From Octopus vulgaris (taxonomy: Eukaryota): a stretch of 64,000 nt of DNA. Positions 418 through 60,563 of this stretch are shown one piece after another. Under the pieces are notes generated by a model that did not search any database, was not told where the DNA came from, and saw only the letters and a list, made by a program, of their open reading frames with translations. A program made the translations under genes and the position numbers. The DNA is taken from positions 3,224,001 through 3,288,000 of the forward strand of contig OX597814.1 in the NCBI GenBank assembly GCA_951406725.2. Reading direction: 5' to 3'. Every line of letters starts with the position of its first letter. Position 1 is the stretch's first letter.

Positions 418-459
<42 letters not shown>

Positions 460-462
<3 letters not shown>

Positions 463-649
463 GGTCCCGGGTTGATTCGGGGTTAACCACAGTAAATAAG
501 GTACTCAATACATAGCAGAGTAAAATTAATTTATTATATAGAAGGAGCTTCTACAGGACTAGAACTGTTTCATTCAAGAGAAATCTTCAGAAGATTTCTC
601 TTGAATGAAACAGTTCTAGTCCTGTAGAAGCTCCTTCTATATAATAAAT
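460..649. mobile_element. Penelope-like element terminal fragment with fold-back hammerhead palindrome (copy 1)
   Basis: Starts GTAGGTCCCGGGTTGATTCGGGGTTAACC directly after (TA)n; near-identical to 9786 and 23899. 529-588 and 590-649 are perfect 60-bp inverted arms containing hammerhead core sequence. Penelope assignment is inferred from the minimal type I hammerhead and the inverted terminal arrangement. Confidence 0.7.
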
Positions 650-8636: not shown

Positions 8637-9422
8637 CAGATAAGTAAGAGATTCTATGAAGGGGTGTAGTTGGGAGGGAGAGAGAGGAGTTCGGGGTGGG
8701 GGGAGGATCAGATGTAGTAAGAGGCAAAAAAGTCGAGATGAAATATCGCTAAGGTGTCTCCGTCAAACCAATCCTGACATGCCATTCCTAGCCAAAATGT
8801 CTCCATACACACTGACCTCTCACTCTACCCGTCACATCCGACATATTTAGGACCTTCTGTCTTAGATTCCCCGTCGCCAACGCCAACATTGCCATTAAGA
8901 AACCACCTAAAACAGTAGCAGCAGCAGCAGCAACAACAACAACAACTGTGACAGGAACTGATATGCGTCTATATTAAGGCTCTGGTTCTCTTCTGCTTCT
9001 ACTCTCTCACCCTCTCTTCTTCTCTCTCTCTCTCTCCTTCTCTATATACATATACTATTTTACTTGTTTCAGTCATTTGACTGTGGCCACGCTGGAGCAC
9101 CGCCTTTAGTCGAGCAGATCGACCCCAGGACTTTTTCTTTATAAGCCTAGTACGTATTCTATCGGTCTCTTTCGCCGAACCGCTAAGTTACGGAGACATA
9201 AACACACCAGCAGCAGTTGTCCAGCGATGTTGGGGGGGGGAGACAAACACAGACACATAAACACACACACAAGTATATATATATATATATATATATCAAT
9301 CACTGTGACCGACCAGGTTATCAGAAGTTGCTACACATCGCTGATCACAATGCGCTTCGCATTGTTTCAGCCTTCAAATGACGCCACCCCGCTGGCTAAG
9401 CAAGCAGGCCAAGATATATTTA

Positions 9423-9461
<39 letters not shown>

Positions 9462-9505
9462 GTGTATATGTTTATATATATATATATATATACATATGTG
9501 TATAT

Positions 9506-9567
<62 letters not shown>

Positions 9568-9575
9568 GTGTATAT

Positions 9576-9617
<42 letters not shown>

Positions 9618-9705
9618 ATAAACATATACACATATGTATATATATATATATATATACATATGTGTATATGTTTATATATATATATATATATACATATGTG
9701 TATAT

Positions 9706-9743
<38 letters not shown>

Positions 9744-9751
9744 GTGTATAT

Positions 9752-9785
<34 letters not shown>

Positions 9786-9788
<3 letters not shown>

Positions 9789-9979
9789 GGTCCCGGGTTG
9801 AGTCGGGGTTAACCACAGTAAATAAGGTACTCAATACATAGCAGAGTAAATTAATTTATTTTATAGAAGGAGCTTCTACAGGACTAGAACTGTTTCATTC
9901 AAAGGAAATTATCAGGAAGCTTCCTGATGATTTCCTTTGAATGAAACAGTTCTAGTCCTGTAGAAGCTCCTTCTATAAA

Positions 9980-9985
<6 letters not shown>
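9786..9985. mobile_element. Penelope-like element terminal fragment with fold-back hammerhead palindrome (copy 2)
   Basis: Same start as 460 and 23899, flanked by (TA)n on both sides. 9854-9985 is a 132-bp palindrome centred on AAGCTT with one mismatch (9910/9929). Confidence 0.7.
9918..9968 (+). ncRNA. Type I hammerhead ribozyme motif (intact core)
   Basis: AGCTTC (stem I) CTGATGA tTTCctttGAAt (stem II) GAA ACAG ttctagtc CTGT (stem III) A | GAAGCT (stem I'). Predicted cleavage after GUA at 9962. The 10.1-11.1 pair is a non-canonical U-U. Confidence 0.8.
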
Positions 9986-10021
<36 letters not shown>

Positions 10022-10589: not shown

Positions 10590-10992
10590 CAGCAGCAAAA
10601 ATTTGTTGCTGCGATTGAAACTAGGATTAACCCCCAGAAACTTCTATTGATGAAAGGTTTTCATACCGTGACCATCCCGTTATATTTTTGTACCGTAGTG
10701 TATGGAGAACTACATTAAAGTATCCTTCTCAAGTCAATAGTGAATGATATGAAGTAGATTCGGCTGCGATTTCTAGCAGGTCGATCGACTATTTAGTGAC
10801 GCACTCGTTGACCCTCACCACCACAACAACTGGTTCTGACAGTTGTGTCTGTTTGGTTTTTTTTTTTATCGTTAGCCCTAGGCCATCCTAAACTGACCAT
10901 ACCACTGACTATACAATTCTTCGCTTGTATTACTACAAAATTCAATGTATCCAACCCGTAGAGATCTCTACATCTATTGATACAGATCTCTA

Positions 10993-11513
10993 TACGGGTG
11001 GGGCACATCAGGCGGGATACTTGTGTCCTTACGGGTGGGACATACCAGGCGGGACATTTGTGTCCTTACGGGTGGGACACATCACGTGGGATACTTGTGT
11101 CTTTCCGAGTGGGACACATCAGGCGGGATACTTGTGTCCTTACGGGTGGGAGACATCACGTGGGATACTTGTGTCCTTACGGGTGGGAGACATCACGTGG
11201 GATACTTGTGTCCTTACGGGTAGAGCACATCAGGCGGGATACTTGTGTCCTTACGGGTGGGAGACATCACATAGGATACTTGTGTCCTTACGGGTGGAGC
11301 ACATCATGCGGGATACTTGTGTCCTTACGGGTGGAACACATCACATAGGATACTTGTGTCCTTACGGGTGGGACACATCATATAGGATACTTGTGTCCTT
11401 ACGGGTGGAGCACATCAGGCGGGATACTTGTGTCCTTACGGGTGGGACACATCACGTAGGATACTTGTGTCTTTCCGAGTGGGACACATCAGGCGGGATA
11501 CTTGTATGTCCTT
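10993..11513. repeat. 37-bp GC-rich minisatellite, about 14 copies
   Basis: Unit GGGATACTTGTGTCCTTACGGGTGGGACACATCAGGC with variants; internal inverted repeat TGTGTCC/GGACACA. Confidence 0.95.
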
Positions 11514-23713: not shown

Positions 23714-24390
<677 letters not shown>

Positions 24391-24445
24391 GTATATATAT
24401 ATATGTATATGTATATTTGTATGTATGTATGTGTGTATGTGTAGG

Positions 24446-24488
<43 letters not shown>

Positions 24489-24614
24489 ATATATATGTGT
24501 ATGTATGCATGTGTGTGTAGATACGTATACATGTGTGTATAGGTATAAGTGAGAATCTCCTTATTTACCTATAACTCTATCCCCCCTTTTTTTATATATA
24601 TATTTTTTTATATA

Positions 24615-24669
<55 letters not shown>

Positions 24670-43096: not shown

Positions 43097-43270
<174 letters not shown>

Positions 43271-59568: not shown

Positions 59569-59748
59569 GGCATTGATGAAGTCAAAAGCAAGCAGTTGAA
59601 ACAACATGGTATCAATATCGTAGCAGACTTTGCTGGTAGTTGTCAGAGATCAACACGTCGAGATTACAGGGAACTCCCCCAAAAACCAAGGCACCGGAAT
59701 GGTAGAATGTGTAAGTGCGGTTATATATATAAATATATATATAAATTT

Positions 59749-59812
<64 letters not shown>

Positions 59813-59971
59813 ACATACCTACATACATACATTCATACATACATACATACATACATACATGTGTGTGTGTGTGTGTGTGATATGCCGCTATATAACTATG
59901 CATGTATATATAAATATATATGTAGGTATGTACATATATGTATGTATATATGCATATATTTATATAATATT

Positions 59972-60012
<41 letters not shown>

Positions 60013-60056
60013 AATATATTATATATGTTATACATATATATATATTATATATATAT

Positions 60057-60095
<39 letters not shown>

Positions 60096-60563
60096 TGTAT
60101 ATGTAAAATATAAATATATATATATATCAATAATAAAAGGGTAAAATCAATTAATTATTAATTAATTTCACCAAGTAGTGTTCAGTATGTAAAAGGACCA
60201 TTCAAGGTATATTCGAAATATTACGTTATATAATTAGTTATATAATTATATAACGTTATATATATATATATATATATGTACAATATATGATTCTATGCAA
60301 ATACAAATATTTATACACACATATTCAAGTGCGTGTGTATGTGTGTAAGAGTGTGTGTGTAATGAACTGATAGTAACTGATAGTTAGGGAGGGCGGGTGT
60401 GGAAGAGACAGATAGTTATATATGCATGTATACACACACGCACACACACATAAACGTTAATATATAAAATGAGGTTGTAGTTAAGAATAGTGGAAGGCAG
60501 ATAGATAAATGCGTATACATACATATATATATATATGGGTGTGTGTGTGTGTAGAAACATATG

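Follow-up and report, generated by a model that had tools for sequence, protein, structure and literature searches.

The insertion and its genomic setting

The window, by which we mean the whole 64-kb stretch of DNA analysed here, carries part of a GATA gene on the minus strand, and the insertion at 9786-9985 lies in the intron between the two zinc-finger exons of this gene. The second finger exon falls outside the window, about 390 bases ahead of its start, and the intron, as defined in the GATA sense, is about 43.5 kb long. The first-pass annotation had described 9854-9985 as a palindrome encoding a hammerhead on each strand. We found that 65 of the 66 pairs match around a centre between 9919 and 9920 (AAGCTT), that the sole mismatch is 9910 T against 9929 G, and that the hammerhead pattern is indeed present on each strand, the minus-strand core reading CUGAUAA. 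The palindrome itself stands, but the extent had to be enlarged, as the full unit comprises the 200 bp of 9786-9985, including a 68-nt extension on the left side. The 30 best genomic copies fetched have identical ends, and the unit aligns to positions 1-141 and 1-68 of a 5.2-kb parent unit. The flanks of these 30 copies are TA-rich, which points to insertion into (TA)n, as for Hydra-clade Penelope-like elements (PLEs), and no target-site duplication is readable at the (TA)n flanks of 9786-9985.

It had also been considered that such palindromes might be an assembly artefact. This doubt was not borne out, as the centre is bridged by contigs of an independent run (X9, records 26, 29 and 30), which are family copies under another organism label and separate from the 9786-9985 locus, and the inverted arm is found at the same junction in 19 contigs of run X1. 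As a separate observation, many joints in run X9 likewise fall at 9919-9921 and are joined to tail sequence, which suggests the same +1 hot spot under that other organism label.

A descriptor scan of the 64-kb window gave the two hammerheads of the palindrome and that of one sister copy, and nothing more (Table 1). Elsewhere in the window, 10905-11496 is a tandem minisatellite with a 37-bp unit, and 59735-60202 on the minus strand is a diverged (72%) match to the 3' region of the element, perhaps an older fragment or a simple-repeat similarity.

Table 1. Features of the 200-bp insertion and of its surroundings in the window (positions of the window; a dot marks features without strand)
Feature	Position	Strand	Remarks
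Whole insertion	9786..9985	.	One tailed and one inverted tail-less arm of a Hydra-clade PLE; without promoter, without ORF
Tail, 68 nt, +69 to +136 of the putative transcript	9786..9853	-	On a single arm only; full elements continue from it into the ORF leader
Left arm, +1 to +68	9854..9921	-	GATA-sense
Right arm, +1 to +68	9918..9985	+	Tail-less
AGCT common to both arms	9918..9921	.	Putative capped transcript +1 and annealing point of the two cDNA ends
Type I hammerhead motif, intact core	9918..9968	+	Predicted cut after 9962, site GUA^; activity predicted from sequence
Mirror hammerhead motif, private G8A at 9910	9871..9921	-	Core CUGAUAA
AATAAA just within the tail-less end	9979..9984	+	Sequence
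(TA)n-rich target, left flank	9414..9785	.
(TA)n target, right flank	9986..10020	.
Sister palindrome, same family	457..649	.	Join lies a few bases within +1
Sister copy with TATA box, intact hammerhead (24035-23985) and short inverted upstream piece	23895..24648	-	GATA-sense
GATA first zinc-finger exon	43110..43255	-	Approximate limits

The parent element

A 28-nt pattern from the arm had 5,423 exact matches in the 2.8-Gb genome (reversed control, 0), and palindromes with the exact AAGCTT centre occur at 666 loci genome-wide. Many arm matches form inverted pairs with spacings from 24 bp to several kb; the long pairs keep the identical two ends, have interiors of up to about 7 kb, and contained parts of one open reading frame (ORF) in 3 of the 20 stretches first fetched. 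In full elements, which were retrieved by searching with this ORF, the tail runs into a leader followed by an ATG at +183, and tandem element units measure 5,193 and 5,387 bp. At locus L114 the frame is open over 713 aa and has 1,081 relatives in the database; it carries RWR, DKT, YRDD and CxCx5C motifs (the last as CNCHDKTTC at 567) and lacks the CCHH cysteines between its two tyrosine motifs. Among 40 aligned proteins, DKT is found in 38, RWK in 33 and RWR in 7, the query having DKT and RWR. Pfam and PDB sequence searches with this ORF returned no RT family match, and the best fold match of its structure model (pLDDT 89) is telomerase RT (TERT; E 1e-8). Its LVY...YIG motifs resemble, by eye, the Hydra alignments in the part of the PMC8557442 supplement available to us, and a Pfam GIY-YIG match was obtained for 1 of the 40 aligned proteins, the query not among them. 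Judged by these motifs, compared with references by eye, the parent is a young Hydra-clade PLE with a 5.2-kb unit and a 713-aa ORF for an RT and a putative endonuclease. The link to Penelope elements proposed earlier for the palindrome is thereby confirmed by a family with an ORF, RT motifs and the inverted one-tail layout.

In 47 palindromes the two arms differ by 0.6% per site, so the burst of insertion would be recent. Eleven arm haplotypes occur, and their variants match subfamilies found among the long arms. The continuations GGCTGTC and TGCTGTC/TGGTGTC were at one time taken for chimeras, a reading that was rejected when they proved to be other subfamilies.

Several side observations concern the family at large. 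Many young ORF copies (L096-L113) have a common frame break at a C run near ORF residue 495, possibly an assembly homopolymer error, while L114 is open. Retroelements are nested in the microsatellite-rich region of the family (L076:4252-6948, L077:4404-7448 and L078:4861-7141) and include one PLE-like ORF from a different clade, a LINE of the APE type (with Pfam matches to RVT_1 and endonuclease) and another Hydra-like ORF whose linker is rich in Asn. At some places the hammerhead end is duplicated directly over a short distance or forms compound arrays (G000:C17:54186450 and 54186671; L078:350-900), which are possible retrozyme-like beginnings.

The hammerhead motif

The three stems and the core pattern CUGANGA / GAAA / UH are present on the plus strand, whereas the minus copy fails at G8. 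In the plus motif, a 6-bp stem I (9918-9923/9963-9968) is followed by the core CUGAUGA (9924-9930), a 3-bp stem II (9931-9942) closed by a U.U mismatch, then GAAA, and a 4-bp stem III (9946-9949/9958-9961) whose loop is near-palindromic. An Rfam search, a check named in the first-pass annotation, gave no hammerhead model among its 90 matches at E<=10, which were generic hairpins only. Of 77 related metagenome loci, 38 carry a covarying type I motif on the strand of the ORF, versus 1 of 77 on the opposite strand. When these relatives were reduced to 27 non-redundant loci (2 short and 9 redundant ones left out), the U.U that replaces the canonical G10.1-C11.1 pair was also seen in 12 of the 27, and a U.U pair at the stem II base is known in an axolotl motif, according to the available portions of PMC7229834 and bioRxiv 2026.07.22.740005. 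Subfamily variants within the motif are confined to N7, loop 2 and loop 3, and a loop 3 dimer duplex is predicted at about -14 kcal/mol; dimers via loop 3 have been proposed for Penelope hammerheads, in the excerpts available. Because the relatives covary, the variants spare the core pattern and a loop 3 dimer is possible, the hammerhead motif is likely maintained in the parent element. Metagenome Hydra-like loci (L246-L322) carry diverse hammerheads, including forms with a long stem II and one U3-A8 core (L264).

Deletions just after the cut site, present in 18 of 280 assembly arms (20 loci picked for cut-site anomalies being left out of this set), were considered as a footprint of cleavage and rejected as probable sequencing or assembly error. 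For eight independent runs the contigs list no such deletion at a frequency of 1% or above, contigs being prone to drop rare variants. Genome-wide, 100 arms deviate at the cut site (a lower bound, owing to the terminal non-C filter), and those that end there can number no more than these; counted by eye on the listed arms, about 30 are point changes and about 30 are stem I microhomology joins. With just this number of deviating arms, the RNA templates would have been mostly uncleaved.

A fixed centre and the putative start of the transcript

What follows the arm differs sharply in outcome by class, for which the totals are again lower bounds owing to the terminal non-C filter, and stops, read-through and extra bases were counted by eye on the listed arms. 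In at least 1,079 arms the next base is C or G; about 95 of the 100 listed are true stops, joined to TA, to filler or to a partner whose start lies a few bases further in. At least 2,781 are followed by A, and about 98 of the 100 listed read through, with about five further truncations in the next 17 nt. For the T-not-C class (at least 296 arms), about 27 of the 100 listed are stops and about three quarters read through. By extrapolation, AGCT is the end of about 40-45% of arms, whereas each base immediately upstream accounts for about 0.3%. The native sequence of minor subfamilies supplies AAGCTT by itself, and with it a 6-base microhomology.

Upstream of this hot spot, 61 of 70 long arms, which are not independent copies, have a TATA consensus at -29, and it is held across subfamilies that differ between TATA and AGCT. 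Among the metagenome relatives, TATAWA occurs 32-40 nt before the core in 7 of the 27 non-redundant loci and is absent there from the other 20 (expected 1.6; 6/5,000 shifts), this interval having been taken post hoc, after listing, from the spacing in the octopus family. An extra untemplated C is found in 35 of 58 direct arm-to-TA joins, versus 3 of 50 internal truncations (p=1e-9); the remaining direct joins have no extra base (11), G (7), T (4) or A (1), and all seven G joins belong to a subfamily in which the G can be templated by the partner. Six of the listed loci have two arms that extend to +1, each of them with the C. Locus L122 starts with (TA)n-G-AGCTTCC and then continues into the ORF. 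In the available text of PMC11702581, the additional G found at 5' junctions of full-length L1 copies is ascribed to the cap. Because of the stop hot spot, the TATA at -29, the extra C, the G of L122 and this L1 parallel, AGCT is likely the +1 of a capped transcript of the element, which would then begin at the first base of hammerhead stem I. The extra C could alternatively come from terminal transferase at a strong RT stop, but the internal truncations are without such a C.

Of the ORF-linked upstream arms, L122 is the only one in 21 that starts at +1, and the other 20 retain upstream sequence; the template may therefore often be a short read-out from promoter-bearing fragments, not the full mRNA. 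A reading of AG|CTTCC as a splice acceptor was dropped, as the arms retain the AG and gain a C.

Origin of the palindrome

We consider it probable that the 200-bp unit is the shortest form of inverted PLE insertion, made of two cDNAs that were primed at both TA strands, ran off at the cap and joined through AGCT. A TATA promoter in the pseudo-LTR would start the RNA at AGCU, the first base of stem I, and the enzyme would prime at two internal sites, at about +68 and about +137, of the uncleaved RNA, the two reverse transcriptions starting at the two broken strands of the TA repeat. Where the sites used lie near the 5' end of the RNA, both cDNAs would be short and terminate at +1, in many cases carrying a C templated by the cap. 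Pairing of the two ends over the self-complementary AGCT would then give a perfect palindrome, while other joins would give the one-base-shorter, filler and single-arm variants. The product, having no promoter, would be a dead end.

The layout and the haplotypes of the copies constrain how the second arm could have been made. Exactly one arm is tailed in 50 of 50 palindromes and in 32 of 33 long pairs, and the three-site haplotype is equal in both arms of 47 of 48 palindromes, rare variants included (shuffle mean 8.6; L130 and L155 were left out of this count, and L152 as well from the set of 47 used for identity and divergence). Both arms would thus come from one source, which also favours the proposal, made for rotifers in the accessible part of PMC3846280, that a single cDNA (or, as for rotifer Penelope elements, an antisense template) makes the second arm by folding back and copying itself; some junctions, such as L037, are compatible with short hairpin priming. 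A copy of the tailed cDNA cannot, however, exceed its template in length, and among 18 clear long copies the longer arm is tailed in nine and tail-less in nine (lengths taken from BLAST through microsatellite-rich DNA, with L219, which has no pair, and 15 unclear loci left out). A single fold-back cannot produce this layout, joins without a loop or with a 1-nt loop are common, and the extra C, which at +1 sits on the antisense strand, indicates a capped sense RNA, so that we regard fold-back as unlikely. The first-pass annotation had viewed the unit as a fold-back retro-insertion; the retro-insertion origin of the inverted repeat holds, while the simple fold-back of one cDNA is not supported. 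Tail-less ends with A-rich runs before the TA repeat were noted at L088, L129, L146, L148 and L151, possibly from priming slippage.

The two remaining routes treat the short palindrome as an element in its own right or as the remnant of a longer one. A palindromic retrozyme or MITE-like master, transcribed and re-inserted whole, would agree with the fixed ends and the 666 exact centres, with the identical arms of 27 of 47 palindromes (daughters of such masters being also symmetric) and with one arm asymmetry common to L021 and L026, two of the 30 top copies. The unit has no promoter and is single, not tandem, and the 11 arm haplotypes track the long-arm subfamilies while the same terminal base is found in about a thousand sister arms that are joined in other ways. 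On these points the independent palindromic retrozyme suggested earlier is not supported, and we give a master of this kind a very small probability. A smaller one still falls to shrinkage of long inverted insertions after integration, by deletion between two AGCT words: AGCT is identical on both arms and so offers direct microhomology, and long inverted copies are abundant, yet the neighbouring palindromic words TTAA and AATT are no hot spots, and deletion leaves the extra C, the single arms joined to TA, and L122 unexplained. Twin priming with run-off on a capped RNA thus remains our preferred reading.

The copy in the GATA intron

The first-pass annotation had further suggested that the transcript could switch between a hairpin and a ribozyme, and that the copy acting on the sense strand had been inactivated selectively. 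Neither idea found support. The hairpin is predicted at -106 kcal/mol versus -6 to -8 kcal/mol for the ribozyme fold, a gap of about 100 kcal/mol in favour of the hairpin, and the predicted hammerhead pair probabilities are 0.00 inside the palindrome. On either transcribed strand, the hammerhead comes after its own complement, and inside the palindrome it is predicted to be dead, locked in the hairpin. As for selection, position 9910 is C in all 29 of the other top copies, so the change is private to this copy. Changes at G8 occur in 29 of about 5,400 arms, compared with 18 for a control G (p=0.14), which is a background rate, and the first 50 palindromes show one such change among their 100 arms; moreover, the same intron holds the intact sense hammerhead of a sister copy (Table 1). 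The G8A would be a neutral later mutation, the hammerhead being trapped in the hairpin.

That the palindrome works as a bidirectional ribozyme cassette on the GATA pre-mRNA, and that selection has inactivated its sense copy, is in our view extremely improbable. The location in a GATA intron and the fact that the mutated core is the sense-strand one speak for this reading; against it stand the background rate of G8 changes, the intact sense hammerhead nearby and the predicted exclusion of the ribozyme fold by the hairpin, and the insertion is one among hundreds of young copies. The 9786-9985 locus is probably inert.

An A opposite C is a context favoured by ADAR. In the GATA-sense hairpin, 9910/9929 forms such an A opposite C, and editing would give inosine at G8, with the motif still trapped.

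Implications and comparison with known systems

Although the locus itself would be inert, it is an informative record of Penelope replication, and such inserts likely mark the start of the element RNA. The family bears on how the head-to-head repeats of Penelope elements form, from sense or antisense template and by fold-back or two primings, and on the role of the hammerhead in PLEs. We raise as a tentative and rather doubtful possibility that Hydra-clade RNAs generally start at stem I, that the ribozyme is a self-decapping switch, and that about half of the arms are run-off copies of capped RNA. If the start is the first ribozyme base, cleavage would take off the cap 45 nt in, which gives the hammerhead a testable role; self-decapping would end translation and free a 5'-OH end. 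Thousands of genomic 5'-RACE records would then show that Penelope inversions arise via twin priming on capped sense RNA, and a 140-nt RNA would be the minimal substrate to reconstitute the inverted product. As a warning, palindromic ribozyme cassettes in introns may be by-products of replication. The element type and the inverted layout are known, while for the start-site and cap reading our searches of open-access literature gave no report of a cap signature or of run-off palindromes in PLEs.

Retroviral minus-strand strong-stop DNA is a short cDNA running off the 5' end of the RNA. The octopus arms resemble it as short run-off cDNAs, but here genomic DNA would likely serve as primer on both strands, and the product would stay in the genome as a palindrome. 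They also resemble the junctions of capped full-length L1 copies, which have an extra base opposite the cap in the available text of PMC11702581.

The comparisons that follow rest on the available portions of the cited papers. The closest relatives are the Hydra-clade PLEs, including Hydra-1_Obim (Craig et al. 2021, PMC8557442 / bioRxiv 2021.04.23.441226), with which the octopus element shares the single ORF, the DKT, RWK/RWR and YRDD motifs, the CxCx5C linker, the lack of CCHH, the (TA)n target, the pseudo-LTR hammerhead, the tandem and inverted layout and the one-sided tail. By eye, it belongs to a family other than Hydra-1_Obim, with a different N-terminus and a short stem II versus the long one listed there. 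Its unit of 5.2 kb with a microsatellite-rich 3' region contrasts with theirs of under 3 kb, its tail of 68 nt with 30-40 nt, and its massive single-base stop with a cap-like C has no counterpart among the elements as described in the portions of PMC8557442 available.

The Poseidon enzyme of Anolis nicks and extends both strands in vitro, with two internal start sites delimiting the tail; RNA cleavage is not needed and the template is uncleaved (Frangieh et al. 2024, PMC11167929). The octopus family would resemble it in its two internal initiation sites, the extension of both strands and the uncleaved template, features that we infer for the octopus. The text available on Poseidon treats neither head-to-head joins nor cDNAs running off the RNA at its 5' end. 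The Poseidon ORF begins inside the hammerhead (PMC11167929), whereas the octopus ORF begins at +183. Rotifer Penelope elements (Arkhipova et al. 2013, PMC3846280) share the head-to-head arms, the one-sided tail and junction palindromes in inverted pLTRs, and their pLTR has a putative TATA and initiator, a TATA being also present in the octopus element. Their palindromes were explained by self-priming, possibly on an antisense template, while the octopus data favour capped sense RNA and two primings (PMC3846280). The D. virilis Penelope has a TATA-less internal promoter (PMC2377424), unlike the TATA-based start that seems likely in the octopus.

Animal non-LTR retrozymes (PMC7229834; bioRxiv 2026.07.22.740005) are likewise non-coding and Penelope-derived, with a type I hammerhead. 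They are tandem direct repeats, each with a hammerhead, that yield circles, whereas such repeats are absent from 9786-9985, and the octopus unit is a single inverted pair.
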